DNA of 40,147 nucleotides, from the IMG/VR virus record IMGVR_UViG_2778261267_000001, one strand, 5' to 3'. Shown here one piece after another: positions 4,966-33,498 of this stretch (positions within the stretch are counted from its first letter, which is position 1; every line of letters begins with the position of its first letter). The position numbers and the translations under genes were made by a program. This DNA comes from a virus. Lineage: Duplodnaviria > Heunggongvirae > Uroviricota > Caudoviricetes. A model generated the notes under the pieces. It was given only the letters and a program-made list of their open reading frames with translations. It had not been told where the DNA came from and made no database searches.

Positions 4966-5042
4966 TTACCGTTGAGGTAATGATTATGCGTATCTGGTTT
5001 GATGTCAATAGATATGAGTTAAAAAAATTACCCATAAGGTAA
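4966..5042. promoter_or_regulatory. Leftward early promoter/operator region (OL-like) with two perfect TTACC-N5-GGTAA palindromes
   Basis: Perfect palindromes at 4966-4980 (TTACCGTTGAGGTAA) and 5028-5042 (TTACCCATAAGGTAA), plus a TTACC half-site at 4953-4957. Located between the repressor terminator and the first leftward gene. Confidence 0.6.
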
Positions 5043-5052
5043 TCTTGCTGAC

Positions 5053-5078
5053 AATAAAAAAGCCGCCATGAGGCGGCT
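5053..5078 (-). terminator. Intrinsic terminator downstream of the repressor gene
   Basis: Stem AGCCGCC / GGCGGCT (5061-5078) with a 4-nt loop, followed on the minus strand by a T-run (plus-strand AAAAA at 5056-5060). Confidence 0.7.
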
Positions 5079-5099
5079 TACTTACTGAAAAATATGATT

Positions 5100-5684
5100 T
5101 TATTGTTTGTTTTTTTCGTTCTGGCTGATGACAAATTCAATGTAACTTTCGATCTTTGCCTTCTCTGTTTCGGGTAACAATGCGTAGCGCGAGCGGTCAT
5201 AGTTGATAGTCGCAGGGTCGTGCGGGTGAATCAGTAATTCATAGCCGTGACGCCCGAATGCGGATGCAACATTCTCCAGGGTGGAAATGGAAACGCTGAC
5301 CTCATTGTTTAACAGGCGGCTGATTGTCACCTGGGCGACGCCGGATGCGCGGTGAAGTTTTCCCTGAGTTGAAAGGTCGCGGCTTTCGCTCATCCAGCGT
5401 TCCAGGTTGTGAGCCGCCAGCTGACCAATGTCGCTTGGGCCGACAGGCTGAAAACCTTCCTGAGAAAGCGAGCGATCGATATCAAGCCAGTTACGGGGTT
5501 TATTGGCGGCAGCTTCAATTTTTCGCGCAACCTGGTCGCCGATAACCTTCTTGCCAAGAGCCCAGCGGTTTACCAGATTTGCCTGAGTTCCAAGTTTTTC
5601 TGCCATCCGCGTCTGAACACCATTGAATTCACGGTCGATCAAGTCGTTGAGATTTTGCCTGCGGACGTCCTGGATACTTTTCAT
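5100..5684 (-). CDS. CI-like phage repressor (HTH DNA-binding protein, no obvious peptidase domain)
   Basis: 194-aa ORF divergent from a cro-like gene; HTH-like segments (MAEKLGTQANLVNRW, VAQVTISRLLNNE). Operator-like palindromes lie on both sides of the gene. Confidence 0.7.
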   Translation of the reverse strand: MKSIQDVRRQNLNDLIDREFNGVQTRMAEKLGTQANLVNRWALGKKVIGDQVARKIEAAANKPRNWLDIDRSLSQEGFQPVGPSDIGQLAAHNLERWMSESRDLSTQGKLHRASGVAQVTISRLLNNEVSVSISTLENVASAFGRHGYELLIHPHDPATINYDRSRYALLPETEKAKIESYIEFVISQNEKNKQ

Positions 5685-5739
5685 TTTCTGGAAAATCGCC
5701 TCATATATGAATCAGTAGATGATTCAATTTAAAGCAATA

Positions 5740-5802
5740 TTACCCAACAGGTAAATGCACCCCATAGGTAACTATCCTTGATTTTTGTTACCTTATGGGT
5801 GA
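5740..5802. promoter_or_regulatory. Divergent immunity promoter/operator region (OR-like) with three tandem operator-like sites
   Basis: Perfect TTACCCAACAGGTAA at 5740-5754, imperfect GCACCCCATAGGTAA at 5756-5770 and TTACCTTATGGGTGA at 5788-5802. A candidate rightward promoter (-35 TTGTTA 5786-5791, -10 TATTAT 5808-5813) overlaps the third site. Confidence 0.65.
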
Positions 5803-5838
5803 ATATTTATTATCTGAAATAAATATCAGGCAATAGCT

Positions 5839-6069
5839 ATGAGCGATAACGGACATTTCGATTTCAAAAAGCACTGGCTTGCACTTACTCCGGATGAGCG
5901 TGAAGCCTTCGCACAGGAAGCCGGAACGACGAGTCACTATATCCAGACTCACTTAACAGGTAAGCGCAAAATGCCAGGTAAGGTATTGATGAATGGGCTT
6001 TTTAAAGCCTGTAAATCAAGACAATGGTTGCGCTCAAAAGCAGAACTGGCATACTTCTTCTACTCATGA
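5839..6069 (+). CDS. Cro-like small regulator (76 aa)
   Basis: Small ORF divergent from the repressor, immediately downstream of the operator cluster and followed by a terminator; call is by position and size. Confidence 0.55.
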   Translation: MSDNGHFDFKKHWLALTPDEREAFAQEAGTTSHYIQTHLTGKRKMPGKVLMNGLFKACKSRQWLRSKAELAYFFYS

Positions 6070-6090
6070 TATCCAGCCACAACCCTCTGT

Positions 6091-6116
6091 AGACCGCCAT
6101 CCGGCGGTCTTTTTAT
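6091..6116 (+). terminator. Intrinsic terminator after the cro-like gene (tR1-like position)
   Basis: Stem AGACCGCC / GGCGGTCT with loop ATCC (6091-6110) followed by TTTTT. Confidence 0.7.
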
Positions 6117-6219
6117 ATCTATTCGCACCTCAAAGGTAATAAAAAACCAAATTTGGTTGATCTTTTTTTTGTGTCAGCACAAAATAACCGTAATCCCAAT
6201 ACTAATAACAGGGCTTACC

Positions 6220-6420
6220 ATGGAAATCATTACACGTATTGATGCCGCAAAGCGCGGACTTAAACGCTACTACACCGGAAAAACATGTAAGCACGGACAT
6301 GACAGTGAACGCTGGGTTTACAACGGACACTGTGTTGAGTGCACCATGGAATCAAACCGTCGCATCAGGGCAGAGATTAAGCAGATCATGATTAATTCCT
6401 CCCCACAACACTCAAGCTGA
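6220..6420 (+). CDS. Hypothetical small Cys/His-rich protein (cII position)
   Basis: 66 aa from the ATG at 6220; the track's upstream extension from 6157 is hydrophobic junk. Contains CKHGH...HCVEC spacing suggestive of a zinc ribbon. Confidence 0.45.
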   Translation: MEIITRIDAAKRGLKRYYTGKTCKHGHDSERWVYNGHCVECTMESNRRIRAEIKQIMINSSPQHSS

Positions 6421-6435
6421 TAGCGGAGATTAATC

Positions 6436-7251
6436 ATGAGCAGACATGCAACAGATTGGGCCTGGGAGACAGATCCAGGCAGCTCATCATTAAAGCTCAT
6501 ACTGCTCTCGATGGCTGACAGAGCCGATGAATATAACCTCTGCTACCCCAGCATAGAACGCCTAGTTAAAGACACTTGCCTGAATAAAAAAACCGTGCAG
6601 GCCGGACTTATATCGCTCATGAAAATGGGGCTTATTTCAGATACCGGAGAGAGAAAGGGAGCGACGAAAAGAGTGCGGGTTTTCTCTCTTAATATAACCA
6701 AAAACGGGAACATTAAAGGCAGCCGGGAAGGGGGTAATGAACCCAAAAACGGTAATGTTACCGAAAACGGGAATATACCCAAAAACGGGATGCTGAATGA
6801 TCCCAAAAACGGGATGTTGAATGATCCCAAAAACGGGATCCAGAACCAGTCATATAACCAGTCATTTAATCAAGAGAGGGAGAGCAGGACAAAAAACGGG
6901 GATTCTGTGCATCATGACCCAGGCGCAAACAACGCCGTGATGAATAACTTTGTTCCTCCTGGTGGGCCAGGGCAATTAGGCAAATTTGTCATGCATGAAC
7001 AATGGCAGCCATCAGATGACTTTCTTCGGAAAAGCTCATTGCAGGGAATCTACCTGGATAGTCTGCCAACGGCACAGGAACTTGCAGAGTTCAGAATTTA
7101 CTGGATGGCTGAGGGTAAGGCATACCATCAGGCACAGTGGGAGCAGAAGCTGGCAAGGCGGCTGCAGATTAGCAGACAGAAGCAATCAACATTAACTGAT
7201 AACAACGTTCCGCACTGGAACAGCCCTGAAGCATGGGAGGATTTCTTGTGA
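6436..7251 (+). CDS. Replication initiator (lambda O-like role) with an internal repeat-encoding segment
   Basis: 271-aa ORF directly upstream of and overlapping the P-like gene. Middle of the gene carries tandem DNA repeats (iteron-like) encoding PKNGMLND repeats. Confidence 0.75.
   Translation: MSRHATDWAWETDPGSSSLKLILLSMADRADEYNLCYPSIERLVKDTCLNKKTVQAGLISLMKMGLISDTGERKGATKRVRVFSLNITKNGNIKGSREGGNEPKNGNVTENGNIPKNGMLNDPKNGMLNDPKNGIQNQSYNQSFNQERESRTKNGDSVHHDPGANNAVMNNFVPPGGPGQLGKFVMHEQWQPSDDFLRKSSLQGIYLDSLPTAQELAEFRIYWMAEGKAYHQAQWEQKLARRLQISRQKQSTLTDNNVPHWNSPEAWEDFL
6696..6845. repeat. Iteron-like tandem repeats inside the O-like gene (candidate origin of replication)
   Basis: Five to six copies of CCAAAAACGG(G/T)A, including two adjacent 24-bp units (TCCCAAAAACGGGATG[C/T]TGAATGA at 6778-6801 and 6802-6825). 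Confidence 0.7.
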
Positions 7252-8033
7252 ACAACGTTTTTACCGCAATACAAAACCGTGACGGAGAAGCCCTTTCTCG
7301 CATGTCAGGTTATGAGCATCAGTACACCAACAATGACAACGTAGTGAACATGTCAGCAGAGAGGCTTGTTGATGCCCTTTTCAAACAGTTGAAACAACTG
7401 TTTCCGGCGGCAGTGGTAACCAACCTGAAGACGCCAGAGCAGGAAGTTGCTGCAAAACAGCAGTGGATTGCTGCGTTTGCTGAAGGAGGGATCCGAACCC
7501 GTGAACAGGTTTCTGCTGGTATGCGCCACGCCCGCGCCAGTGAATCTCCGTTCTGGCCGTCGCCAGGGCAATTTATCAAGTGGTGCAAAGACAGCAAGAT
7601 GGTTCTTGGCGTCACCATTGACGATGTGATGGCGGAGTTTCACCGGTACAGCAAGGAAAAAAGTTTATATCCTGGCGGTCCCGAAAGATTCCCGTGGCGA
7701 CATCCGGTTATGTACTGGGTCGTATGTGATACACGCCGTGCAATGTATCAGCGCCAGCTTAGCGAGATTGAGGTTGAGAAACACGCGCGCAGGCTGCTCG
7801 ATGATTGGGCGAAAAAGGTGGCTTCCGGACAGCAGATACCCGATCCGGTGATCAGCATACAGGCAAAGCCAGAACCCATGAGTACGCCTCCGGACACAGG
7901 GAGAGACGTTTACCACCCGCCAGGGCGAAGTTTCGGGTGCATGCCTAACGCCGCCACCCTGGGGGGAATAACACCGGCGCAGTGGCTGATGGAGGAATAC
8001 AGGCGGGGAAAGGCGGCAGGATTTATCAAGTAA
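7233..8033 (+). CDS. Replication protein P-like helicase loader
   Basis: Clear resemblance to lambda P as I recall it (e.g. AGMRHARASESPFWPSPGQFIKWC versus lambda GMRVARRQNRPFLPSPGQFVAWC). Start may instead be the GTG at 7248 overlapping the O-like stop. Confidence 0.85.
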   Translation: MGGFLVNNVFTAIQNRDGEALSRMSGYEHQYTNNDNVVNMSAERLVDALFKQLKQLFPAAVVTNLKTPEQEVAAKQQWIAAFAEGGIRTREQVSAGMRHARASESPFWPSPGQFIKWCKDSKMVLGVTIDDVMAEFHRYSKEKSLYPGGPERFPWRHPVMYWVVCDTRRAMYQRQLSEIEVEKHARRLLDDWAKKVASGQQIPDPVISIQAKPEPMSTPPDTGRDVYHPPGRSFGCMPNAATLGGITPAQWLMEEYRRGKAAGFIK

Positions 8034-8038
8034 TACCA

Positions 8039-8058
8039 GCGCGATAGCGCATTTTTTT
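8039..8058 (+). terminator. Weak terminator-like hairpin after the P-like gene
   Basis: GCGC-GATA-GCGC stem-loop followed by seven T residues; the stem is only 4 bp, so strength is uncertain. Confidence 0.35.
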
Positions 8059-8070
8059 ACGCCTACATGA

Positions 8071-8147
8071 TTACCTTGCGGGTAATAAAATGTTCTAATT
8101 TCTATTGATTTCATGTCTTATGTGGTTTTTAATTACCTCAGAGGTAA
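8071..8147 (+). promoter_or_regulatory. Regulated internal promoter region: two perfect TTACC-N5-GGTAA palindromes flanking a TATGTGGTT element
   Basis: TTACCTTGCGGGTAA at 8071-8085, TATGTGGTT at 8119-8127, and TTACCTCAGAGGTAA at 8133-8147 (a perfect 15-bp palindrome overlapping the RBS of the 8151 gene). Confidence 0.6.
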
Positions 8148-8150
8148 ATC

Positions 8151-8495
8151 ATGAGAAAACAGATACAGGCTCTTGGTCGACTCAAAACAGGCCAGATGAA
8201 CAAAACAGAATCTGCGTATTGCCAGCACCTTGAGCTGCGTAAACGTGCAGGAGAAATCGTCTGGTATCGATTTGAGGGTATCAAGCTTCGGTTAGCTGAC
8301 AACACGTTCTATACGCCCGATTTTGCTGTGATGCTCGCCACCGGCGAGATGGAACTGCACGAAGTGAAAGGTTTCTGGACCGACGACGCCAGGGTGAAAA
8401 CCAAAGTCGCCGCAGATCAGTATCCGTTCCGAATCATTGGGGTAACGGTTAAACCAAAGAAAGCAGGTGGTGGCTGGAACATCGAAGAGTTCTGA
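8151..8495 (+). CDS. DUF1064-like phage protein (putative PD-(D/E)XK-type nuclease / resolvase-like)
   Basis: 114-aa ORF with a D...ELHEVKG segment (D-x(n)-E-x-K) typical of small phage nuclease-fold proteins. Confidence 0.5.
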   Translation: MRKQIQALGRLKTGQMNKTESAYCQHLELRKRAGEIVWYRFEGIKLRLADNTFYTPDFAVMLATGEMELHEVKGFWTDDARVKTKVAADQYPFRIIGVTVKPKKAGGGWNIEEF

Positions 8496-8556
8496 ATCGA
8501 CGATCTTTTTAGTTATCAATGTAATCAATAAGTTATGTGGATAAGCGAGGGTAAAG

Positions 8557-9201
8557 ATGGAAATTAATATCAAAGGATTAGTTGCCGCCGGGCATGAGAT
8601 GGCTTCGGAACTGAAAGCTGAATGTGGTGCCGTTGATATGCGTAGTGTGGCAAAGCTGCTCAGCGATTTGGCAACGCAACTGGAAGTGCAACTGGCGCGT
8701 GCTAATGCGCTGGCCGAAGACCAGCAGAAAGCGATTGAGTCAATTAAGCAGGCTGATTCGGCCGTTAAGTTGGCGCACGAGAAGTTTTCAGCGCTGGCGG
8801 CGGAGAATGAGGCGTTGAAGTCGAACCTGATTTACTGGGGCGGCGAAGATTCAGGGCCTGTCAGAAGCCCGCTTGATTACGCCCATGAAGCCGGGCTGGA
8901 ATCTGGAGAGGAGTTTGAGATGCAAGTGGCAGCCAGAATGCCGAACCTGACTTATCGCGTTGTGTCCAGTTCCCGGTTCAAAACAGAAATAGAACTGATT
9001 GGCGGATTATTGCCGGAAACCCCAGCCACCGATGCTTTCCTGGCTGAAGTGCGGGCGCAGGCGTTTAATGACCTTTGCTCGGCGTTCGTTAAACACGCGA
9101 ATTTCGCGGGAATGGATGATGGTGAGCTAGTGAGGCTTAAATATGCGACGGACGCCCTGCTGCATTGTGCGGAACAGCTTCGCAAAGGAGGCAACCAGTG
9201 A
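8557..9201 (+). CDS. Hypothetical coiled-coil phage protein (214 aa)
   Basis: ORF with RBS (GAGGG) and a heptad-rich, alanine/glutamate-rich N-terminal half. Confidence 0.55.
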   Translation: MEINIKGLVAAGHEMASELKAECGAVDMRSVAKLLSDLATQLEVQLARANALAEDQQKAIESIKQADSAVKLAHEKFSALAAENEALKSNLIYWGGEDSGPVRSPLDYAHEAGLESGEEFEMQVAARMPNLTYRVVSSSRFKTEIELIGGLLPETPATDAFLAEVRAQAFNDLCSAFVKHANFAGMDDGELVRLKYATDALLHCAEQLRKGGNQ

Positions 9202-9743
9202 GTGTAACGGTTGAAAAGATTGATGTGTTGTCATTCGTTATAACCGGTGCAGAGAGACTAGATCCGATTCGAGTGATGATTGAAAACTACGAACCTGGTA
9301 AGGGAAGAATCACCATCACCTGCTACGGAAAAGCGTGGACTGCGGCTTGGTTTGCTATGGGCGGTGATGATGTGCAGACGTTCATTAAGCGAGTCAGCAA
9401 CGACTATCTAATCGACAATTTCGACCCTCAACTGCTAAGCACGGTCGACGATGACAACGATGCAAATCTGCTTTTCGTGAAGTCAGAAATCATAAAGTTA
9501 CGAAGAGAGAGAGAAATCGACGCCGTACTGGCTCGCGAAATGTGGGACGAGGCGGAAAACGCCGATGACGTAAAAGAAAGCTGCTGCTGTTTCGGCGTCG
9601 GTAACAAACTACTGAATCTCTTTGGTGATGATCCGTGGTGTGCCAACTGGCCAACGATACCAAACCCGAAATACCAGTATCTGGAACGCGTACTTAATGC
9701 AGTGAGAGACGGCCTTAAGCAAATAGAGAAGGTGGAACCATGA
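9198..9743 (+). CDS. Hypothetical phage protein (181 aa from the GTG start)
   Basis: AAAGGAGG RBS at 9185-9192 precedes the GTG at 9198, which overlaps the upstream stop; the track's longer start at 9165 is rejected. Confidence 0.55.
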   Translation: MSVTVEKIDVLSFVITGAERLDPIRVMIENYEPGKGRITITCYGKAWTAAWFAMGGDDVQTFIKRVSNDYLIDNFDPQLLSTVDDDNDANLLFVKSEIIKLRREREIDAVLAREMWDEAENADDVKESCCCFGVGNKLLNLFGDDPWCANWPTIPNPKYQYLERVLNAVRDGLKQIEKVEP

Positions 9744-10039
9744 CTGTATGTCTTATTGATAAACGTCGACGTGGGCAACAAATACCATCTGTTGAAATTC
9801 CGAATCACACATGGTTTTGCGTACTTGATATCGATGGTATGGATACGTTGATCGACACTCGTCATTACTGCGATACCGCAACAGCTACTCCTGCAAAAGC
9901 AAAGAAAATGGCTGCTCTGATAGAAAACTGGACTCCACCTGATGGTTGGTGCAATGGGAATGATCGAGATTGGCACGAAAAAATGAAGGGCTACATCTGC
10001 GATTTCTTACGTAAATGCAACGGATTCAGGGTGATGTGA
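9740..10039 (+). CDS. Hypothetical phage protein (99 aa)
   Basis: ORF with 4-nt start/stop overlap with the upstream gene; no motif recognised. Confidence 0.5.
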   Translation: MTVCLIDKRRRGQQIPSVEIPNHTWFCVLDIDGMDTLIDTRHYCDTATATPAKAKKMAALIENWTPPDGWCNGNDRDWHEKMKGYICDFLRKCNGFRVM

Positions 10040-10040
10040 C

Positions 10041-10757
10041 ATGAGCAAGATTGACTATCAGGCACTGCGTGAGGTGGCAGAGCGTGCAATTCCGGCAATG
10101 GAACGCCTGTTAATGTTGCCAGTTGATGATGATTTGTTAACTGAACAGGAACTTAAGGATTACGGTGTGGATATTGATGCGCTCAATGCCTTCAAATTTC
10201 TGACCGGACCAGAAACCGTGCTGGCGCTGCTGGATGAACGGGAAAGAAACCAGCAATACATCAAACGCCGTGACCAGGAGAACGAGGAAATTGCGCTAAC
10301 GGTAGGGAAGCTGCGTGTTGAGCTGGAAGCCGCAGAGAACAACCTTATTGATAGTGAGTGCCATGTTGCTGAACTGGAAGAAGCGCTACGCGATAAGCAG
10401 GCGTTACCTGAAGCATCAGAGAAGCACATAGCAGAACTGGAAACAAAAGCGAACCAGCAAACCAGAATAAGCGATAAGGGGCTGACAAAGCTGATTGCCG
10501 ATGCTGACAAAATGCTGGGTATGCGTTCGCCGGTTATAGGCAGCGAGTGGTGGACGCTTTTACGGCAGTTCCTGATTGAACTTCAGGATCGCCGCAGAAA
10601 CAGCATTTCTGAATCTGGAATCCGTGCTGAAACCCTGAATGATTTAATCCGACATATTGACAGAAACCTGGATATTGACGCGATGAAATCGCCGTTTGAA
10701 CTGTCATCTGAAATTGTGGATTACGTTAATAGGCAACTGCACAAGGATAATTCGTAA
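10041..10757 (+). CDS. Hypothetical coiled-coil protein (Ea22-like character)
   Basis: 238-aa ORF with a long central coiled-coil-like segment (LRVELEAAENNLIDSECHVAELEEALRDKQ). Confidence 0.55.
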   Translation: MSKIDYQALREVAERAIPAMERLLMLPVDDDLLTEQELKDYGVDIDALNAFKFLTGPETVLALLDERERNQQYIKRRDQENEEIALTVGKLRVELEAAENNLIDSECHVAELEEALRDKQALPEASEKHIAELETKANQQTRISDKGLTKLIADADKMLGMRSPVIGSEWWTLLRQFLIELQDRRRNSISESGIRAETLNDLIRHIDRNLDIDAMKSPFELSSEIVDYVNRQLHKDNS

Positions 10758-11119
10758 TGCAGGTGGCATTTGTTGGCCTGTTACCGCATCCGATCCGCCT
10801 TTGGGCGGATATGTCACTCATAAAAACGCATTTTTTTACTACTGATGGCGGCATTCCGGCACCAAAGCGCCGTCATACCGGTATTGCAGCGGCACGACGA
10901 GCAGCAAAGAGACGCAGGAGAGCAAAGCGATGAAAAACCGTAAAGCAAAGATTCTGTTAGTTCGTAGAAACGCTCCTGGCGTCTGGTAGTGGGTGAGACT
11001 CAGCAACCGACGGATGGGGTTGATGAAATATTACGGGATGATGGATTGTGGTTTTTGCAAAAAGCCCAGCGCGGCGCAAAACCGCTGGAAAAACCACTTG
11101 CGCACTAAAGGAGAGTGAT

Positions 11120-11635
11120 ATGGCGTTAACACACCGCGAACTCTGTCAGATTGCGTATAAGTTCCTTAAGCGCAACGGGTTCAAGGTTTGTTTTCATGAC
11201 CGCTTTATAGCTGTAACCAGTACCGGAGAACAGCCAGATGCTATTGGATTCAGAAATTCAGCATCATGCCTGATAGAGGCGAAGTGTTCTCGTGCTGACT
11301 TGTTGGCAGATAGAAAAAAGCGTTTTCGTAAAAATCCATCTCTTGGAATGGGCGACTGGCGATTCTTTATTAGTGAGCCGGGAATTATTTCAGTTGAGGA
11401 TTTACCACCTGGCTGGGGATTACTTCACGTTGTTAACGGAAGAGTACGGAAAGTACATGGGTGGCCCAAGGGTAATTGCTGTTGGGGTAATCCTGACGAT
11501 AAGCCATTTACTGGAAATAAGCAGGTTGAATGCGATTACATGTTATCTGCATTAAGGCGCATGGAGTTGAGAGGGCACCTTAATGAAATATATGACGGTG
11601 TAATTGTTAATAAGAAAGAAGGAAACGCGGCATGA
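11120..11635 (+). CDS. MmcB-like PD-(D/E)XK nuclease-fold protein
   Basis: 171 aa from the ATG at 11120 with AAGGAGAG RBS. Contains a PD...E.K arrangement (QPDAIGF ... LIEAKCSRADLLAD) followed by WRFFISEP, as in MmcB/DUF1052-type proteins. Local AT enrichment. Confidence 0.55.
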   Translation: MALTHRELCQIAYKFLKRNGFKVCFHDRFIAVTSTGEQPDAIGFRNSASCLIEAKCSRADLLADRKKRFRKNPSLGMGDWRFFISEPGIISVEDLPPGWGLLHVVNGRVRKVHGWPKGNCCWGNPDDKPFTGNKQVECDYMLSALRRMELRGHLNEIYDGVIVNKKEGNAA

Positions 11636-12450: not shown

Positions 12451-12724
12451 CCTGCAACTTGCCGTCAAAGGTGAATACTTCGATGCCATGATTCGCAGAG
12501 AGAAAACGGAAGAGTATCGCCTGTGTAATGACTACTGGAATAAGCGAATTATGTTCCGGGAGTATGACCGCCTGATTATCACAAAGGGATATCCGAAGCG
12601 CGACGATTCCAGCCGCAGAATTGATGTTCCGTATGACGGATATGAAATCAAGACAATCACACATCCCCACTTCGGCGATAAACCGGTAAAGGTGTTCGCG
12701 ATAAAGGTGAATATTGATGGCTAA
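12443..12724 (+). CDS. ASCH-domain-like small protein
   Basis: 93-aa ORF with GTG start overlapping the upstream stop; N-terminal LQLAVKGEYFDAMIRREKTEEYR resembles ASCH-domain openings. Confidence 0.5.
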   Translation: MANLQLAVKGEYFDAMIRREKTEEYRLCNDYWNKRIMFREYDRLIITKGYPKRDDSSRRIDVPYDGYEIKTITHPHFGDKPVKVFAIKVNIDG

Positions 12725-13055
12725 ATCAGCAGCAGAGCGCAAAGCCGCTCAGAGAGCCAGACAAGCTGAATCCGGTGTGCGTAAGCTGGAAATTGTGCTT
12801 GATGCTCAGGAAATTGAAATGCTGGAGCGTAACTGTGCCACGCGTCGCCCCGGGCGCGCGCCTTACGAATTTGGTGAGTATATAGCGTTACTGATCCGCC
12901 AGGATGATGCACGCGTGCGCGGGCGTATAAAATCGATCAGCAGAAAACGTTGCGGTAAGTGCGGCGAGAGAGTTCCTGTGAATTCATGCCCGTGTAATGG
13001 TGACTCGCAATGCTGGGTGACCAAAGGCTGGCATGAAACGAAATTAATAGTGTGA
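12717..13055 (+). CDS. Hypothetical protein with Cys-rich C-terminus (candidate zinc-binding regulator)
   Basis: 112 aa from ATG 12717; C-terminal CGKCGERVPVNSCPCNGDSQCW cysteine cluster. Confidence 0.5.
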   Translation: MAKSAAERKAAQRARQAESGVRKLEIVLDAQEIEMLERNCATRRPGRAPYEFGEYIALLIRQDDARVRGRIKSISRKRCGKCGERVPVNSCPCNGDSQCWVTKGWHETKLIV

Positions 13056-13072
13056 CATGTCACGAAGGTGTT

Positions 13073-13285
13073 ATGCCAAAAATACGCTACGACCTTGAAG
13101 ATATGAGAGATAACTCAGCAAATTTTCCGAAAGAGGTTAAATTTCTCATGCATAAGTATGGTTGCGCCAGGAGGGATATAGTTATCGACAGTCAGCACCC
13201 TTGCGGCGAGGATGTAATTTTCATTCGCGGTAAATGGGAAGGGTATCTTGACGAGAGTTTTTACGATGAATTTGATGGACTTTGA
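13073..13285 (+). CDS. Hypothetical small protein (70 aa)
   Basis: ORF with GAAGGTG RBS before the ATG at 13073; last gene before a strong terminator. Confidence 0.45.
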   Translation: MPKIRYDLEDMRDNSANFPKEVKFLMHKYGCARRDIVIDSQHPCGEDVIFIRGKWEGYLDESFYDEFDGL

Positions 13286-13290
13286 ATACT

Positions 13291-13317
13291 GCCGCCAACT
13301 ATGGCGGCTTTATTTTG
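13291..13317 (+). terminator. Intrinsic terminator immediately upstream of the small terminase gene
   Basis: GCCGCC-AACTAT-GGCGGC hairpin followed by TTTATTTT; lies inside the track's N-terminal extension of the terS ORF. Confidence 0.7.
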
Positions 13318-13359
13318 CATGGTACTATTACCACAACGGTAACTATTACCACGGTGGTT

Positions 13360-13956
13360 ATGATGCCTGCTGAACCTAAAACCTATAAACGCAAATCAAC
13401 GCAATTTAAGCCACTAACAGCAATGCAGGAGGCTTATTGCCAGTCATACATCAAAACGCCTGAAAACCAGACTCAGGCAGCGATTAACGCAGGATTCTCC
13501 CCAAATACAGCGGCAGTTAAAGCCAGTGTCATGATGCGCGATGAACGCATTCAAAAACGGATTGCCGAGTTGATGGAGGAGCGCAACAAACGAATGCGCG
13601 TCAGTGCTGATTACGTTCTCATGCGCCTGGTGGAGATCGACCAGATGGACGTGATCGACATCCTCAACGACGATGGGAGCCTTAAACCAATCCGTGAGTG
13701 GCCGAAAATCTGGCGCACTACGCTTAGCGGCTTTGATCTGTCATCGACCATCATGAACATGAACGAGGATTCGATAGAGACAATCCTCAAAAAAATTAAA
13801 TGGCCTGACAAGGTGAAGAACCTTGAGCTGATTGGTAAGCATGTTGATGTCAACGCGTTCAAAGAACGCCTGGATGTTAATGTGAATGTGACAATTGCTG
13901 ATCGCATAGCGGCAGCCAGGAAGAGACTGAAAGAACGTCAGGATGGCAATCAGTGA
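13360..13956 (+). CDS. Terminase small subunit
   Basis: 198 aa from the MMPAEPK start (RBS GGTGG); helix-rich small protein immediately upstream of and overlapping the large terminase. Confidence 0.7.
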   Translation: MMPAEPKTYKRKSTQFKPLTAMQEAYCQSYIKTPENQTQAAINAGFSPNTAAVKASVMMRDERIQKRIAELMEERNKRMRVSADYVLMRLVEIDQMDVIDILNDDGSLKPIREWPKIWRTTLSGFDLSSTIMNMNEDSIETILKKIKWPDKVKNLELIGKHVDVNAFKERLDVNVNVTIADRIAAARKRLKERQDGNQ

Positions 13957-15505: not shown

Positions 15506-15518
15506 ATATGTCACGGTG

Positions 15519-16491: not shown

Positions 16492-16569
16492 TTACCCAAA
16501 AGGTAATAATTCGTGCGTTAAATGTCAACTACCTACGATAAATAAATCATATGTGGTTAAATTGGTAAT
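16492..16569 (+). promoter_or_regulatory. Candidate late promoter region: TTACC-N5-GGTAA palindrome plus TATGTGGTT-N5-GGTAAT element
   Basis: TTACCCAAAAGGTAA at 16492-16506; TATGTGGTT at 16550-16558 followed by GGTAAT at 16564-16569; about 30 bp upstream of the first virion-block gene. Confidence 0.55.
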
Positions 16570-19496: not shown

Positions 19497-20489
19497 ATGA
19501 CAATGGCTGTTAAAGGCTTAACTGCGCTAACGCTGGCTGACTGGGGTAAGCGCGTCGATCCAAACGGGAAAGTCGATAAGATTATCGAGCTTCTCGGTCA
19601 AACTAACCCGATCCTTCAGGATATGCCTTTTGTCGAAGGGAACCTTCCTACCGGACACCGAACCACCATTCGTTCTGGTTTACCTTCAGCTACCTGGCGT
19701 TTGCTGAACTATGGCGTACAGCCAAGCAAATCAACCACAGTGCAGGTAACCGATTCCGTTGGCATGCTGGAAACCTATGCTGAAGTCGATAAATCACTGG
19801 CTGATCTGAACGGCAATACCGCTGAATTCCGCCTGTCTGAAGACCGCGCATTTATTGAAGCGATGAATCAGCAGATGGCGCAGACGCTGTTTTATGGTGA
19901 TTCCAGCGTTAACCCTCAGCAGTTTATGGGACTGTCCTCCCGCTATTCCAGCCTGTCTGCGGGTAATGCTCAGAACATCATTGATGCTGGTGGCACGGGT
20001 ACAGATAACACCTCAATCTGGTTAGTGGTGTGGGGCGAAAACACCGTGCATGGCATCTTCCCGAAAGGGCAGAAGGCTGGCATCCAGATGGAAGATAAAG
20101 GCCAGGTGACACTGGAAGATGCTAATGGCGGCAAGTACGAAGGCTATCGCACCCATTACAAATGGGACAACGGACTTGCTCTGCGTGACTGGCGTTATGT
20201 TGTTCGCATTGCAAACATCGATGTCAGCAATCTTTCAGAACCTTCCTCTGCCGCAAATATTGCGAAGTTGATGGTTAAAGCACTGCATCGCATTCCAAAC
20301 CGTGGAATGGGTCGCCCGGTGTTCTACATGAACCGCACTGTAGGCCAGGCTCTTGATCTGCAATCTCTGGAGAAAACATCTCTGGCGATCAGCGTAAAAG
20401 AGACAGAAGGCGAGTGGTGGACTTCATTCCGTGGTGTACCAATCCGTGAAACTGATGCGCTTCTGGAAACAGAAGCCCGTGTGGTGTAA
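19497..20489 (+). CDS. Major capsid protein
   Basis: 330-aa ORF after the scaffold gene with a strong RBS (AGAGGAAATGA); assignment by position and size in the portal-scaffold-capsid order. Confidence 0.75.
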   Translation: MTMAVKGLTALTLADWGKRVDPNGKVDKIIELLGQTNPILQDMPFVEGNLPTGHRTTIRSGLPSATWRLLNYGVQPSKSTTVQVTDSVGMLETYAEVDKSLADLNGNTAEFRLSEDRAFIEAMNQQMAQTLFYGDSSVNPQQFMGLSSRYSSLSAGNAQNIIDAGGTGTDNTSIWLVVWGENTVHGIFPKGQKAGIQMEDKGQVTLEDANGGKYEGYRTHYKWDNGLALRDWRYVVRIANIDVSNLSEPSSAANIAKLMVKALHRIPNRGMGRPVFYMNRTVGQALDLQSLEKTSLAISVKETEGEWWTSFRGVPIRETDALLETEARVV

Positions 20490-28296: not shown

Positions 28297-30095
28297 GTTA
28301 CTTTGGCCTTAATCCAGTAAACCAGAATCAGCAGCTTGACGAAGCAGCATCAAATCCAGCTGGCTTTAACAGCGATGTTGGTTTTTTCGACAATGCTGTA
28401 GGAGCGGCATTGTCTGGTTTGTACTCCGGGCTGGTGGCAAAGCCAGATCAGTTGCTCTGGGCAGGGATGGATAAAATCGTATCCCCGATTGCTCAGTTTG
28501 TTAACGAAAACACCTCGCTCAATGACACTTCAATTTCATACATTGCCGAGCAGAGAAAACTAGCAGAGCAGCAGGTTAAGCGGCTGACGCCTGATGCCGC
28601 GACAACCGGAACCGCCGGGCAGGTTCTTTATGGGTTGTTCGATATGGGCGGGCAGGCTGTTGTCGGTACAACGCTCGGTGGTCCTGTCGGAGGTGCAGCG
28701 GCGGTAACTTCGCTACAGGGTTTTTCTGAGTTTGAACGGCTGACAGCACAGGGTGTTGATTTCAGGACGGCGCAGGAAGCGGGATTAGTGCAGGGCATTA
28801 CTGCTGGTGCCGGAACACTGATCCCTATGAGCCTCGGGTTACGTGCTGGTGGTGCGCTGGCGGAAGGTGTGGCGGCTCAGCTTGCGCGGACGGGTGAGAG
28901 TTCAGTGCGACGCGCCGCAGCAACAGCAGTACGTGCAACGCCAGATATTGCCTATGCCGCAGGTACAAATATTGCGTTCGGTATGGCACAGCGTGGGCTT
29001 ACTGCAAAAACGCTTCGTGATGGTGGCTATAGCGAAATGGCTAACCAGTATGATGTGTTGGATCGACAGGCAATTGCTATTGATGCTGTTCTTGGGGTGG
29101 CGTTTGGTGGTGTCGGCAGATTTATTAACTCTCGCGGCGAGTCTACAAACGCACCAAATTTTTCACCAGTTGATATCGATGCTGCACTGGCGGCGAATGC
29201 CGCTCATCATGCTGAAATTGATATTGCGCCCGGCGTGCCGATCAACGTGCTTTCGCGCAATTCTCACATTCAGGCTCTGCGAAAAGCTATGTCTGATGTT
29301 AGCCAGGGGAGACCTGTAGACGTTGCCAGCATTGTTGAGTCTGCATCTTTCAGTGAAATTCCTGGGCGCAAGAGTCTGCTGTCTCAGGCAGTTAATGAGG
29401 CTCTGTCATCTGTAGATGATGGAGTAACGGCGCGCGCTATAGAAAATCGGTTGCTTGAAGAACAGGCCGCGCAGCTTTTGCCGCGTGGCGATAGACAGGT
29501 TTACCAGTCTGAAATCGCTAATAGCCAACGAATTATTGAAAATCTCACTGAACAGCGGGCACAAATTCTTGCAGAAGAGCCAACCGGTAGCGGTAAAGCT
29601 TTGTCTCGTGCTAGATCAGATAAACAGGCCAGACTTCGCGATATTGATCAACGAATCCGGCAGGCACAAGAACGCCTGGAATTTTCCCGTAACGCGTTGG
29701 CACCGCACGAGCCTGGCGGTCAGTTTTTTGAAGCTCGAGCAGAACTGGCTCGGAGACAGCAGGCAGAAAGTGAACTTAATGCTCAGGCTGTTTCATTCTA
29801 TAAAACAGCAGAGGTCAGGACGCCAGACGAAGTAGCTCCTTTTGAGCCTGGTAAAATATTGCAACAGGCAGAACAAAAAATGATGGCGGATCAGGCGGGA
29901 GGTATTGATCTTCGCATAGCTGAAGACTCGCTGCTTGAATCACCTGACATGATAATCACCGTGCTGGATGATGATGGTAATCCACAATCGCGCAGCGCGC
30001 GCGAAGTACTGGATGAAGCGAACAGGGAAAGTGAGCAGGCAATACAGGATTCCAGCCTGTTTGATGTTGCTGTGGCGTGTTTCTTGAGAGGTTAA
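28293..30095 (+). CDS. Internal virion/ejection protein (600 aa)
   Basis: Large Ala/Gly-rich ORF with overlapping start, located in the ejection-protein block. Confidence 0.55.
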   Translation: MSYFGLNPVNQNQQLDEAASNPAGFNSDVGFFDNAVGAALSGLYSGLVAKPDQLLWAGMDKIVSPIAQFVNENTSLNDTSISYIAEQRKLAEQQVKRLTPDAATTGTAGQVLYGLFDMGGQAVVGTTLGGPVGGAAAVTSLQGFSEFERLTAQGVDFRTAQEAGLVQGITAGAGTLIPMSLGLRAGGALAEGVAAQLARTGESSVRRAAATAVRATPDIAYAAGTNIAFGMAQRGLTAKTLRDGGYSEMANQYDVLDRQAIAIDAVLGVAFGGVGRFINSRGESTNAPNFSPVDIDAALAANAAHHAEIDIAPGVPINVLSRNSHIQALRKAMSDVSQGRPVDVASIVESASFSEIPGRKSLLSQAVNEALSSVDDGVTARAIENRLLEEQAAQLLPRGDRQVYQSEIANSQRIIENLTEQRAQILAEEPTGSGKALSRARSDKQARLRDIDQRIRQAQERLEFSRNALAPHEPGGQFFEARAELARRQQAESELNAQAVSFYKTAEVRTPDEVAPFEPGKILQQAEQKMMADQAGGIDLRIAEDSLLESPDMIITVLDDDGNPQSRSAREVLDEANRESEQAIQDSSLFDVAVACFLRG

Positions 30096-30100
30096 ATTAA

Positions 30101-32575
30101 ATGAGACAGGAATGTATACAAGCGGTCCAGCAGGCGGCGCAGCGCACGTTAACGGCGCGAGAAATACAGAACATTGAAGACCGCATTTATCGAAATATGC
30201 GCTCCATTGCTCGTGATGACCCGATGTCGTGGCGACAACTTTCCGAATCAGAACGGTTGTATCGTGCAGCACAATTGGCATCTGAAGAATTACAGCGAGA
30301 AGCGGCATTAAAGAAACGTCGTGTGGCTCTCACTATAGCCGCACGTCAGAGATTGGATAAATTTATCAATAGCTATCAAGGGGCTGATGGGAAACTTGGC
30401 GCTCTTAACCGTACTATTGCTTTTAATGCAGACGGTAAATCGAATTTCCTCTCTGTTGAATCCAGAACAAAAGCCACTCGTGATTATGCATTGAGTCAAT
30501 TGCAGGAGGCATTTGAAGCAGTTGATCCTCGCTTTTTTGGCCTGTTTGAAGATGAAGCGGGCGTACGTGACCTGGTATATGAAATGCGGGGGCAAAATAC
30601 TGGCAATGCTAAAGCAAGAAAAGGTGCTAAAGCGTGGAGAGAAGTTACAGAGCTGCTGCGCCGCCGGTTTAATGATGCTGGTGGGGACATTGGCTATCTC
30701 GAAAACTGGGGGATCCCTCAACATCATTCTATGGAAAAGGTTGGTGCGGTATCAAAGGATAAGTGGGTTAGCGATGTTATAGGTAAGCTGGATCGCAAAT
30801 ATTATACCCGAGCCGATGGACAACTGATGAACGATGCCGAGTTGTCTGCATTTCTTGGAGAGGCTTATAACACGATCGCTACTGGTGGGCTGAATAAGCT
30901 TACTGATACCGGAATGCGAATTTCCGGCGCACGTGCTAACCGTGGTAATGCATCACGACAGATACATTTCAAAGATGCAGATTCCTATCTCCAATATCAA
31001 CAACTTTATGGCGATCGCTCTCTATGGGAAATCATGGTCGGTCACCTGGAAGGTATCAGTAAAGATATTGCTCTGGTGGAAACATATGGTCCAAACCCCG
31101 ATCATGTTTTCCGCTCCCTTCTTGATCAGGTTAAGGCAGAAACGGCAACAGCTAACCCGAGTAAAACCGGTAAAGTCGAGCGGCTGGCGAACAACACAGA
31201 GAATCTGTACAACTTTATTTCCGGAAAGACACAGCCTGTAGCGAATCCGCACATCGCGCGATGGTCTGACAATATCCGCAACTGGCTGGTTGCCAGCAGG
31301 CTCGGATCCGCGTTGCTGTCATCGTTCTCTGATCTTGGAACCATGTATCTGTCTGCGAAGGTTACCAACCTTCCAATGAACCAGTTATTCCGCAACCAGC
31401 TTGAAGCTATGGACCCAACGAACCGTACAGAACTTGCGCGGGCGCGCCGCGCTGGTCTGGCGATGGAATCTCTACTTGGCAGCGTTAACCGCTGGGCGAT
31501 GGATAATATGGGGCCGTCAGTGTCTCGTTGGGCGGCAACGGCGGTAATGCGTGCCAGTGGGCTTACAGCATGGTCAGATGCGCACAAGCGCGCCTATGGC
31601 GTAACCATGATGGGAAGCCTGGGAGAAGTAGTGTCACGGACACCAGACCTTCGTAGCCTTGATGACTCTGATTTTCGTATCCTGAAAAGCAAAGGGATTA
31701 CTGACACAGACTGGAGCGTATGGAAGTTGGCGCAACAGGAGGACTGGGGGAACGGTAATAATACGATGCTGACGCCGGAAAGCATTATGCGTATCCCTGA
31801 TTCAGCAGTTAAACATCTTGGTGAGCCTGAACGCGTGAAATTTGAGGCAATGCGTAAACTGCTCGGTGCCGTAACTGAAGAAGTTGATATGGCTGTTATT
31901 ACACCGGGAGCACGTGAGCAACTGATAACCGGTTCTGGTATTCAGCGTGGAACATGGAAAGGTGAATTAACGAGAAGTGTTTTCCTGTTTAAATCGTTCC
32001 CTATCTCGGTTGTTATGCGTCACTGGTCACGCGCTATGGGTATGCCGTCTGCTGGTGGGCGTGCGGCATATATTGCGACGTTTATTGCCAGTACGACCAT
32101 TCTTGGCGCTTTGTCGCAGCAACTTAACGACCTTGCGTCTGGTCGTAATCCTCGAGAGATGACAGGAGAAGATGCCGCAAAGTTCTGGCTTGGTGCTCTA
32201 CTGAAAGGTGGTGGTCTTGGCCTGTACGGTGACTTTTTATTGTCAGATCACACTAGGTACGGAAGCGGCGCGCTGGCGTCGATGCTTGGCCCGGTAGCTG
32301 GTCTGGTTGATGACGTAGTGAAGATTGCTCAGGGCATACCGTTAAATGCTGTGGAAGGGAAGAGTGAGCAGATTGGTGGTGATCTGGTGAAGCTGGGGAA
32401 AGGTTTGATGCCTGGTGCGAATCTCTGGTACTTGAAGGCGGCTCTCGATCACATGATCTTTAACCAGATGCAGGAGTATTTTTCACCAGGCTATTTGCGT
32501 AAAATGGAGCAACGTTCGAAGAAAGAGTTTAACCAGACATACTGGTGGCGACCTCAGGATGTCACTCCGCAATAA
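30101..32575 (+). CDS. Internal virion/ejection protein (T7 gp16-like position, 824 aa)
   Basis: Large ORF immediately upstream of the tailspike region; role by position only. Confidence 0.55.
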   Translation: MRQECIQAVQQAAQRTLTAREIQNIEDRIYRNMRSIARDDPMSWRQLSESERLYRAAQLASEELQREAALKKRRVALTIAARQRLDKFINSYQGADGKLGALNRTIAFNADGKSNFLSVESRTKATRDYALSQLQEAFEAVDPRFFGLFEDEAGVRDLVYEMRGQNTGNAKARKGAKAWREVTELLRRRFNDAGGDIGYLENWGIPQHHSMEKVGAVSKDKWVSDVIGKLDRKYYTRADGQLMNDAELSAFLGEAYNTIATGGLNKLTDTGMRISGARANRGNASRQIHFKDADSYLQYQQLYGDRSLWEIMVGHLEGISKDIALVETYGPNPDHVFRSLLDQVKAETATANPSKTGKVERLANNTENLYNFISGKTQPVANPHIARWSDNIRNWLVASRLGSALLSSFSDLGTMYLSAKVTNLPMNQLFRNQLEAMDPTNRTELARARRAGLAMESLLGSVNRWAMDNMGPSVSRWAATAVMRASGLTAWSDAHKRAYGVTMMGSLGEVVSRTPDLRSLDDSDFRILKSKGITDTDWSVWKLAQQEDWGNGNNTMLTPESIMRIPDSAVKHLGEPERVKFEAMRKLLGAVTEEVDMAVITPGAREQLITGSGIQRGTWKGELTRSVFLFKSFPISVVMRHWSRAMGMPSAGGRAAYIATFIASTTILGALSQQLNDLASGRNPREMTGEDAAKFWLGALLKGGGLGLYGDFLLSDHTRYGSGALASMLGPVAGLVDDVVKIAQGIPLNAVEGKSEQIGGDLVKLGKGLMPGANLWYLKAALDHMIFNQMQEYFSPGYLRKMEQRSKKEFNQTYWWRPQDVTPQ

Positions 32576-32584
32576 GGAAGTGTT

Positions 32585-32758
32585 GTGTTTTTAATTATTT
32601 TGAGTGTGATAATTTCTGGTGGATTGTTATTTATTGACCGCTACAAATATTTTCTTAACCCTCAGACTCAAGCTATTTGCTGGTTCATCTTTGTTGTGCA
32701 GGGAGTAGTTCTTGTTGCAAGCCTTATTGAGGGGAGGCCTCTTATTTTTACTGGGTAA
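32585..32758 (+). CDS. Small hydrophobic membrane protein (57 aa, GTG start)
   Basis: ORF below the track cut-off, translated by hand (VFLIILSVIISGGLLFIDRYKYFLNPQTQAICWFIFVVQGVVLVASLIEGRPLIFTG). Two predicted TM helices; AGGAAG 4 nt upstream of the GTG; AT-rich. Confidence 0.35.
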   Translation: MFLIILSVIISGGLLFIDRYKYFLNPQTQAICWFIFVVQGVVLVASLIEGRPLIFTG

Positions 32759-32770
32759 ATAGGTGACTAC

Positions 32771-33067
32771 ATGCAAGCTATAGGATTCATTGTTTATATC
32801 GTCGTTGGTCTTTTTCAGTTGGCAGCAATTATGGCTGGGCTTGAATCATGGTGGGGATTGCACTGGATAATTGCAGCCCCCATCGCTTTCATCGTGAGCT
32901 ATATTCCATTTGTTGGAGCGATTGTTGGTATGGTTGGCGCTGTGGATGTATGGCGGTGGGAGTGGTGGCAGGCTGGCCTTCTCTTCTTTGGTGGGATCAT
33001 CTTTGCTATTGTCTGCGGTGGAATGTCATCATTTTTCGAATGGCTATCATTCAGAAAAGGAACGTGA
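32771..33067 (+). CDS. Small integral membrane protein (98 aa)
   Basis: ORF with AGGTG RBS; almost entirely hydrophobic with Trp-rich loops (three or more TM helices); followed by a terminator. Confidence 0.55.
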   Translation: MQAIGFIVYIVVGLFQLAAIMAGLESWWGLHWIIAAPIAFIVSYIPFVGAIVGMVGAVDVWRWEWWQAGLLFFGGIIFAIVCGGMSSFFEWLSFRKGT

Positions 33068-33075
33068 CATGTCAC

Positions 33076-33100
33076 AGGCCGCTTTCGCGGCCTTTTCTTT
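33076..33100 (+). terminator. Intrinsic terminator after the membrane-protein genes
   Basis: AGGCCGC-TTTC-GCGGCCT hairpin followed by TTTCTTT; preceded by a 12-bp palindrome GTGACATGTCAC (33064-33075). Confidence 0.65.
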
Positions 33101-33374
33101 ATGTAGTTTGTTTTCGTAATTGTTCGGCACAATAGTCGAGATGTGTTTGCAGATCCTGCATAGACATCTGTGAGCTGGTGACGTAGTTAATCAGTGCAGT
33201 CAGTTCGGCAAGTGGGCCATCGACATTAAATCCATCCTTATCGAGATCCCGGAGTAATTTCATCAAGTGCGATCCATCCACCAGTGACCTGACGCCTCCC
33301 GGCGTGTGAATCCTTTCGGTAAATCCGTCTTCCAGTGGATAGTGATACTGCTGCATCTTATCTTCTCCATGCAA
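33099..33374 (-). CDS. Hypothetical protein (91 aa), divergent from the tailspike gene
   Basis: ORF convergent with the membrane-protein genes and sharing a 177-bp divergent control region with the tailspike gene; no motif recognised. Confidence 0.45.
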   Translation of the reverse strand: MHGEDKMQQYHYPLEDGFTERIHTPGGVRSLVDGSHLMKLLRDLDKDGFNVDGPLAELTALINYVTSSQMSMQDLQTHLDYCAEQLRKQTT

Positions 33375-33432
33375 TAACTGTATATTTATACAGTATCAAA
33401 TAATTTGTTTGCTATCCAGCACGTTTTGCGAA

Positions 33433-33498
33433 TTACCTGAAAGGTAATATCTATTCGTGTTTATGGGTTATCTATCCATATGTGGTTTTTAAGGTAAT
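33433..33498. promoter_or_regulatory. Tailspike / divergent-gene control region: TTACC-N5-GGTAA palindrome plus TATGTGGTT-N5-GGTAAT element
   Basis: TTACCTGAAAGGTAA at 33433-33447; TATGTGGTT at 33479-33487; GGTAAT at 33493-33498. Confidence 0.55.

Follow-up and report, generated by a model that had tools for sequence, protein, structure and literature searches.

The virus record IMGVR_UViG_2778261267_000001 of IMG/VR comprises 40,147 nucleotides of a member of the Caudoviricetes (hereafter the window), in which the palindrome TTACC-N5-GGTAA recurs between genes from the immunity region to the lysis cassette. The immunity region shares 97% identity with that of Escherichia phage phiV10 and related Uetakevirus phages, and the gene order agrees with the records of phiV10 and epsilon15. 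Judged by its sequence, the window is a phiV10-like (Uetakevirus) prophage. Its left part runs from the integrase gene int through the leftward early operon (PerC-like, AlpA-like, RecET) and the repressor gene rep to the cro-like gene and the replication genes; its right part runs from a mosaic middle block through terS, terL, the portal/structural operon, the antirepressor gene ant, the tailspike gene and the acyltransferase gene to the lysis cassette. Among the members of this family are phages that convert the O antigen of E. coli O157, Salmonella, Klebsiella and Enterobacter; phiV10 itself has served in phage-based bacterial detection (PMC7472331). The immunity region (4940-5850) was found in 539 of 5,426 complete E. 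coli genomes at an identity of at least 95%, nearly always as one chromosomal copy.

An exact window scan finds eight perfect copies of the palindrome, starting at positions 4966, 5028, 5740, 8071, 8133, 13328, 16492 and 33433. The preliminary description of this DNA had reported seven of them, all correctly, and had missed the copy at 13328-13342 upstream of the small terminase gene terS. Its chance expectation of about 0.04 perfect copies is reproduced analytically (~0.04), and 100 dinucleotide-preserving shuffles gave a mean of 0.01 and a maximum of 1. Three further copies deviate at one position (5788-5802, 13346-13360 and 36943-36957). The first and the last of these had been recognized before and the middle one had been overlooked; a supposed one-mismatch copy at 5756-5770 in fact lies at 5757-5771 (GCACCCCATAGGTAA) and carries two mismatches. 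Together with 6125-6139 it makes up the two-mismatch copies at conserved positions. In a gene model built from the phiV10 and epsilon15 annotations, the non-coding fraction amounts to 5.8% of the window and holds all 13 sites (eight perfect, three with one mismatch and two with two mismatches), which bears out the earlier statement that all sites are intergenic. The remaining 27 two-mismatch hits all fall within coding sequence and look like background. The motif thus lies far above the shuffled controls, and its perfect and one-mismatch copies never occur in coding sequence, the two comparisons by which the preliminary description had proposed to check it. No site was found in the interior of an operon, including the structural operon at 16.8-32.6 kb.

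The copy at 13328 requires a comment, since it falls in a mechanically called open reading frame (ORF; 13282-13956, TTG start) and in the annotated terS of phiV10. The latter is annotated from the TTG (phiV10 41-121; window 13282-13363), which places two operators inside the coding sequence. We regard the site as intergenic and the annotated phiV10 start as probably too far upstream, because homology to the TerS protein of epsilon15 begins only at MPAEPK, with the ATG at 13363, the terS start used here.

Table 1 Operators, promoter elements, terminators and regulatory genes of the window. Perfect denotes a copy of TTACC-N5-GGTAA without mismatch
Feature	Position	Strand	Basis or remark
OL proximal operator, perfect	4966-4980		Exact scan; conserved in PL/Pmid alignment
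PL, leftward early promoter, TTGACA-17-AATCAT	4980-5008	-	Promoter scanner, 10/12 matches
OL distal operator, perfect	5028-5042		62 bp from proximal operator; centre at about -62 from predicted PL start
Rho-independent terminator after repressor gene	5060-5079	-	Just upstream of OL; also annotated in phiV10
Rep repressor, 194 aa	5100-5684	-	N-terminal helix-turn-helix (HTH), middle HTH_3 domain, C-terminal tetramerisation/Ant-binding region
OR site a, perfect	5740-5754		At -70 from rep in 79/79 placeable IMG/VR loci
OR site b, GCACC-N5-GGTAA, two mismatches	5757-5771		17 bp from site a; conserved
PR region	5778-5813	+	TTGATT at 5778-5783; scanner call TTGTTA-17-TATTAT at 5785-5813
OR site c, TTACC-N5-GGTGA, one mismatch	5788-5802		31 bp beyond site b, in PR -35/spacer
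Cro-like protein, 76 aa	5839-6069	+	phrog_35 'transcriptional repressor', 8.7e-13
Degenerate operator, GCACC-N5-GGTAA, two mismatches	6125-6139		GTACC versions at same place in phiV10 and Tyrion
Pmid distal operator, perfect	8071-8085		Right after terminator of replication (P) gene; terminator annotated in phiV10
Pmid, TTGATT-17-TTTAAT, with TTATGTGGTT box at 8118-8127	8105-8133	+	Read from sequence; scanner made no call
Pmid proximal operator, perfect	8133-8147		62 bp from distal operator; overlaps predicted start site
Terminator ending middle operon	13291-13316	+	Directly before terS operators
terS extended -10-like element, TGgTACTAT	13320-13328	+	Last T is first T of operator; conserved in alignment
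terS operator 1, perfect	13328-13342		epsilon15 counterpart 12-27 annotated 'repressor'
terS operator 2, TTACC-N5-GGTTA, one mismatch	13346-13360		18 bp from operator 1; overlaps terS ribosome-binding site
Portal-block (gp3/portal operon) single operator, perfect	16492-16506		First base 105 nt before ATG 16597
Portal-block promoter, ATATGTGGTT box	16549-16558	+	Sequence and alignment
Ant antirepressor homologue, 85 aa	33099-33356	-	87% identical to SPC32H Ant; phrog_450 and weak anti-repressor hit
LexA box CTGTATATTTATACAG, perfect CTGT-N8-ACAG, ant promoter region	33378-33393		Sole zero-mismatch hit in window
Single operator, divergent ant/tailspike region, perfect	33433-33447		epsilon15 19895-19911 annotated 'repressor'
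Tailspike promoter, ATATGTGGTT box	33478-33487	+	Sequence and alignment
Lysis/acyltransferase divergent-region operator, TCACC-N5-GGTAA, one mismatch	36943-36957		First base 119 nt before lysis ATG 37062
Lysis promoter, extended -10 element TGTGTATGAT	37004-37013	+	Sequence and alignment

The arrangement of the sites is most regular at the leftward early promoter (PL), where they form the leftward operator (OL), and at the promoter of the middle genes (Pmid). PL (4941-5047, minus strand) and Pmid (8066-8156, plus strand) align column for column in six phages: an operator is followed after 19-20 nt by CTATTGA (-35) and, 17 nt further on, by a -10 hexamer whose last T opens the second operator. 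This alignment shows no variation in the two operators, in the TATTGA core of the -35 or in the ATG. At Pmid, the order is terminator, operator 8071, 19 nt, TTGATT, 17 nt, TTTAAT and operator 8133, and the proximal operator holds the Shine-Dalgarno sequence of the gene at 8151. At PL, operator 4966-4980 has its first T in common with the end of the -10 hexamer and therefore covers the predicted start site. The 62-bp spacing of the operators (about six helical turns) is shared by PL and Pmid and was seen 151 times in 80 IMG/VR loci. By their alignment, PL and Pmid are paralogous 'sandwich' promoter cassettes. A third OL operator is present next to the first leftward gene in epsilon15 (32479-32494), with homologues in SPC32H and BUCT711; a hairpin insert (GAAACCACCACTTCGTGGATTTC) precedes it, and PL regions of the phiV10 type, that of the window included, are without this insert.

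Three operators separate the divergent repressor and cro-like genes and form the rightward operator (OR). The preliminary description had placed an OR triple here and an OL pair at PL; both are present and conserved across the genus. The homologue of the imperfect OR site b is perfect in epsilon15, SPC32H and BUCT711, and the TTGAT motif at the rightward promoter (PR) is kept in six of seven aligned sequences, with TTGCT in Serratia. Beyond the cro-like gene, the degenerate operator 6125-6139 is flanked by the terminator of that gene (6091-6110) and, on the far side, by another hairpin (AACCAAATTTGGTT) with a T-run behind it (region 6091-6175). No N-like antiterminator that would carry PR transcription past 6091-6175 into the replication genes was evident in the window.

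The further sites that had been listed before the middle genes, the virion block and the tailspike gene and, with less assurance, in the divergent lysis/acyltransferase region were found at these places throughout the genus. In five phages, the distance from the first base of the operator to the start codon is 105 nt at the portal block, 119-121 nt at the tailspike gene and 119-120 nt at the lysis genes. The portal offset is identical in phiV10, epsilon15, SPC32H and Tyrion, the epsilon15 copy (2931-2947) being annotated 'repressor'; the lysis offset is 120 nt in the same four phages, and the epsilon15 copy is perfect. In six phages, the middle, portal-block, tailspike and lysis promoters share a second element, the ATATGTGGTT box, 35-47 nt downstream of the upstream operator. 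It takes the form CATATGTGGTT in the portal-block regions and in the tailspike region of the window and the looser form CATATrnGGTT in the rest; a weaker form lies near 36991-37000 before the lysis genes, and the epsilon15 boxes are at 2989, 24752 and 35954. At the late promoters the box is followed by a -10-like element, either GGTAAT or TGTGTATGAT. This conserved box is a candidate site for a phage activator, for which the PerC-like protein (2089-2388, minus strand) and a gp49-like regulator (12714-13055) are possible proteins. The operator at 33433 had been taken for a host-range operator. It does precede the tailspike gene, but its role need not be limited to host range because the LexA-controlled antirepressor gene lies on its other side and the site is ~60-65 bp upstream of the putative promoters of both genes. 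A 69-aa ORF (36837-37046, minus strand) spans the lysis-promoter region; it is probably no gene because it has no match to a Pfam or PHROG family and overlaps conserved promoter elements.

The window starts at the start codon of int, and the upstream region of this gene falls outside. In four phages, a near-operator, TTACCyTAAAGGTAT, is conserved ~57 nt upstream of the integrase gene (phiV10 26870, epsilon15 26882, SPC32H 26960, fourth phage 28568), which suggests that int is likewise under the control of this operator set.

In each of the related genomes compared, the palindrome is much more frequent than expected by chance. Perfect copies at homologous positions number eight in phiV10, 11 in epsilon15, ten in SPC32H, nine in Enterobacter phage Tyrion, nine in Klebsiella phage BUCT711 and seven in the available 20 kb of a Serratia prophage whose repressor is 54% identical; an unrelated Pseudomonas siphovirus contains none. 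These homologous positions are OL, OR, after the replication genes and before terS, the portal block, the tailspike gene and the lysis genes. The conserved unit is the 17-bp palindrome A-TTACC-N5-GGTAA-T, and repressor sites annotated in the epsilon15 record span the same 16-17 bp. In the alignments of the late promoters, PL/Pmid, terS and OR, the half-sites are invariant and the spacers and flanks vary. The 80 IMG/VR loci (1.16 Mb), which all encode a 99-100% identical repressor and serve for population counts rather than for divergence, contain 495 perfect sites against 1.1 expected, and neighbouring sites are spaced only by 18, 48, 61 (once) or 62 bp. When one perfect site was used as anchor and its partner was scored, the major-allele frequency in these loci was 0.92 in the half-site columns, 0.55 in the spacer and 0.57-0.63 in the flanks. 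The half-sites are thus under selection, and the partial descent of the copies from duplicated promoter cassettes does not alter this.

The repressor Rep, encoded between OL and OR, is homologous over its full length to the Rep protein of phage SPC32H (PDB: 5D50; E 4e-42, residues 1-190) and shares its N-terminal DNA-binding, middle dimerisation and C-terminal tetramerisation/Ant-binding domains. A Pfam search of Rep returned HTH families only, without an S24 peptidase domain for RecA-dependent autocleavage, so that the term CI-like applied to it in the preliminary description does not fit in the lambda sense. In Rep alignments, N36, R40 and W41 are invariant and L37 is nearly so; this segment is read as the recognition helix. 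It is kept as N-L-V-N/S-R-W in every homologue down to 52% identity, and one operator sequence may serve the whole genus because the DNA-binding segment is conserved in this way. According to secondary sources, the Rep of SPC32H binds palindromic sites as a tetramer and is removed by the tetrameric antirepressor Ant, the two DNA-binding domains on one palindrome coming from different dimers (PMC9638917); the two middle-domain pairs are ~100 A apart, and the C-terminal domain resembles loop-forming tetramerisation domains (PMC9986798). Of the mechanism by which SPC32H Rep represses, a 2023 paper says that it 'has not been extensively characterized'. Given the homology to a protein reported to bind its palindromes as a tetramer, the earlier attribution of the sites to one dimeric protein is probably wrong. 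In phage ZX5, whose repressor is 99.5% identical to that of the window and was reported as identical to that of phiV10, overexpression of the repressor lowered endolysin and holin transcripts by more than 99.9%; the paper defines no operators (PMC9782041).

Two further regulators belong to this setting. The Cro-like protein is 78% identical to gp39 of epsilon15; the block AGTTSHYIQ is invariant within its stretch 29-40, which is read as the HTH, and the protein may use the same sites as Rep. The LexA box lies 22 nt upstream of ant, an arrangement also present in SPC32H. As a perfect LexA box precedes an Ant homologue, SOS induction would proceed via the antirepressor and not via cleavage of the repressor. 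Homologues of Rep were sought by tblastn against phages, in a 5.8-billion-protein search and in the Serratia prophage (Rep 54% identical). Every homologue keeps both N-L-V/I-N/S-R-W and TTACC-N5-GGTAA, and conservation of the Cro-like protein is just as strong. Rep, as a non-cleavable tetrameric repressor of the SPC32H type, is the likeliest binder of the motif.

Placement and genus-wide conservation support the central proposal of the preliminary description, that of operators spread over the genome and belonging to the immunity system. We consider it highly probable that the palindrome is the operator of this system, with Rep as the likeliest binder, and that every transcription unit carries a site suited to repression. 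In the lysogen, Rep would be present as a tetramer whose four DNA-binding domains suffice for two palindromes. At PL and Pmid, Rep would occupy the operator centred near -62 as well as that covering the last part of the -10 hexamer and the start site. At terS, two operators 18 bp apart would cover the start site and the ribosome-binding site. At PR, site c would act from within the -35/spacer, and the rep promoter is probably under the control of the two adjacent OR sites upstream. One operator each would serve the portal-block, ant/tailspike and lysis promoters; at the first two it is located ~60-70 bp upstream of the predicted start. Rep tetramers could clamp the paired sites and possibly bridge the single ones, and would thereby silence early, middle and late units directly. 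Upon DNA damage, inactivation of LexA would allow Ant (33099-33356) to be made, which would strip Rep from the DNA and release all units.

The sites, their geometry and conservation and the homologies of Rep, Ant and the LexA box are observations, and the binding of Rep at every site, DNA looping and the direct repression of late promoters are inferred. Several points weigh against this interpretation. The comparison of homologues cannot separate Rep from Cro as binder because both are conserved wherever the motif occurs. Start sites are predictions throughout. The consensus promoter scanner called PL and PR only and made no call at Pmid, terS or the portal block; Pmid and the terS and late promoters are based on reading of the sequence and on alignment, and the scanner runs did not take in the tailspike and lysis regions. 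The CATATGTGGTT-type box at the portal, tailspike and Pmid promoters suggests a separate activator, and therefore the repression of late genes could be mostly indirect. The operators of the portal block and the tailspike gene, ~60-70 bp upstream of the predicted starts, do not occupy a classical occlusion position, and their placement would fit class-I activation equally well. Finally, the 'repressor' sites in the epsilon15 record may be computational only.

The last points but one lead to an alternative in which the palindromes outside the immunity region are mainly activator sites. A protein bound there, either the Cro-like protein or, for lysogenic-conversion genes such as that of the acyltransferase, Rep itself, would recruit RNA polymerase in a class-I-like manner to middle and late promoters devoid of a -35 element, and late repression would be indirect. 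The single operators indeed have their centres ~60 bp (tailspike) and ~71 bp (portal block) before the predicted starts, a difference of one helical turn; no consensus -35 is evident in the sequence read of the portal, tailspike and lysis promoters, which share the CATATGTGGTT box and the GGTAAT or TGTGTATGAT elements at -10, and 36943 and 33433 are located in divergent regions by genes expected to be differently regulated in the lysogen. We nevertheless think this improbable as the main function: at PL, Pmid, terS and PR the same palindrome lies over the start site or the spacer, a repressing position, the distinct conserved box already offers a candidate activator site, and overexpression of the repressor abolishes lysis-gene transcripts, though direct and indirect effects were not separated in that experiment (PMC9782041). 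Class-I activation at the late sites would moreover be compatible with operators bound by Rep rather than opposed to them. A roadblock of the stoperator type, by which bound repressor halts readthrough polymerases instead of controlling initiation, would make sense of four clusters that follow directly on rho-independent terminators and directly precede the next gene (5028 after 5060-5079, 6125 after 6091-6110, 8071 after the P-gene terminator and 13328 after 13291-13316). The sites are symmetric and therefore cannot be orientation-dependent, they number only ~13 with none inside long multigene operons such as that at 16.8-32.6 kb, and each cluster stands in fixed register with conserved -35 or -10 elements, the operator starting at the final T of the -10; roadblocking appears to us less probable still.

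Much less credible are two readings in which the repeats are not double-stranded binding sites of the immunity repressor. RNA hairpins serving as translational operators or processing sites could be envisaged, as two sites overlap ribosome-binding sites (8133-8147 with GAGG 4 nt before the ATG, 13346-13360 with GGTGG) and the 17-mers can form hairpins of 5-7 bp. We consider this very improbable and rejected it, on account of the weakness of the stems (-3.3 to -4.9 kcal/mol) and of their failure to covary in seven genomes and 80 further loci, in which TCACC, GGTGA, GGTTA and GCACC break the pairing; several sites are also located upstream of predicted starts and hence would be untranscribed. 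At the very bottom of our ranking stand duplicated promoter cassettes, or a target of a methylase, a restriction enzyme or a host factor, without a link to the immunity repressor. The phage does encode an adenine methylase, and PL and Pmid on the one hand and the portal, tailspike and lysis promoters on the other are paralogous, because of which the copy number alone overstates the independence of the sites. Within the paralogous cassettes, however, flanks and spacers have diverged and the half-sites are invariant across genera. The target of a methylase or restriction enzyme would not keep to promoters and to a fixed register, and on this placement such targets, including that of a host factor, were rejected. 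The repressor and cro-like genes, furthermore, flank the densest cluster, and the unrelated phage is without the motif.

A more specific version of the Rep model can be put forward, tentatively and with the odds rather against it. In such a flat design, one Rep tetramer, its DNA-binding pairs opposed and ~100 A apart, would clamp the -62/+1 operators (62 bp, in helical phase) and would bridge lone operators to weak GGTAA half-sites at late promoters, and Ant would free about eight units at once. An activator at the CATATGTGGTT box of the late promoters would then form an AND gate, and the operators at -60/-70 could perhaps be class-I sites for the Cro-like protein. In the literature as far as it was accessible to us, no description of this design was found. 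More generally, a repressor in direct contact with every promoter would explain tight silencing without an antitermination cascade of the lambda style, and likewise the simultaneous derepression of all units by the antirepressor. Concrete constraints on the DNA-binding mode of the tetrameric Rep come from the conserved spacings of 62 and 18 bp.

The epsilon15 genome was reportedly described by Kropinski et al. in 2007. In its record (AY150271.2 / NC_004775.2), the depositors marked seven features as 'protein_bind, repressor, lysogeny': 12-27 before terS, 2931-2947 before gp3/portal, 19895-19911 before the tailspike gene, 32479-32494, 32554-32570 and 32616-32632 at OL, and 35906-35922 after the replication genes. 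All seven are TTACC-N5-GGTAA sites. One repressor with operators dispersed to early, late and host-range genes is hence publicly documented already for the type phage of the genus, contrary to the preliminary description, which was unaware of any such case in this type of enterobacterial podovirus prophage. The record of phiV10 annotates terminators only, and a full-text literature search for literal forms of the motif gave no match. What may be new is the occurrence of paralogous -62/+1 sandwich cassettes, of spacings quantised at 18, 48 and 62 bp and of a box shared by the late promoters. The window and epsilon15 have the palindrome, the genus and the homologous positions (terS, gp3/portal, tailspike, OL and after the replication genes) in common; their Rep proteins are ~42% identical overall with a conserved DNA-binding region. 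Epsilon15 differs from the window by a third OL site and by a lysis-promoter site without mismatch. Its record leaves the OR sites, the second sites of Pmid and terS and the lysis site unannotated.

In function, the set is an immunity network of dispersed operators, akin in its logic to those of P1 and phiC31 and less closely to that of L5. Among more distant systems, the stoperators bound by gp71 of mycobacteriophage L5 are asymmetric 13-mers, ~30 in number, that act in an orientation-dependent manner and block elongation. The resemblance to L5 suggested at the outset consists in repressor sites beyond the immunity region in short intergenic gaps. It breaks down on symmetry, copy number and promoter register: the sites of the window are symmetric, amount to ~13 and are embedded in promoters at fixed positions, rather than forming asymmetric sites in 20-30 copies throughout transcribed regions and within operons, and membership in the stoperator class was rejected on these grounds. 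With lambda, the window shares the divergent repressor and cro genes around a tripartite OR and an OL at the leftward promoter beyond the repressor terminator. Unlike in lambda, Rep has no S24 peptidase domain cleaved with RecA, and the operators are not confined to the immunity region and also occur at middle, terS, portal, tailspike, lysis and int-proximal positions; a Q-type antiterminator is unannotated in the phiV10 and epsilon15 records, no direct search for one having been made. In Streptomyces phage phiC31, the c repressor binds conserved inverted repeats of 17 bp that are scattered over intergenic regions close to many promoters and are associated with early promoters only. They resemble the present sites as dispersed 17-bp repeats for an immunity repressor and differ in that the repressor is unrelated and the host Gram-positive. 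In coliphage P1, the monomeric C1 repressor binds more than a dozen scattered operators, asymmetric 17-mers. Both are enterobacterial temperate phages with one immunity repressor, many dispersed operators and antirepressor-based induction; the C1 protein belongs to another family, and the -62/+1 sandwich geometry is absent from P1.

The nearest counterpart apart from epsilon15 is SPC32H. Its Rep-Ant-LexA switch was reportedly described by Kim & Ryu in 2013 and by Kim et al. in 2016, with the structures PDB 5D50 and 5D4Z. The window shares with it the full-length Rep, the 87%-identical Ant, the LexA box at the ant promoter and the motif positions, at which SPC32H has ten perfect copies. All sequence features open to comparison agree, and by membership the window would belong to the epsilon15/SPC32H Rep-Ant-LexA system.

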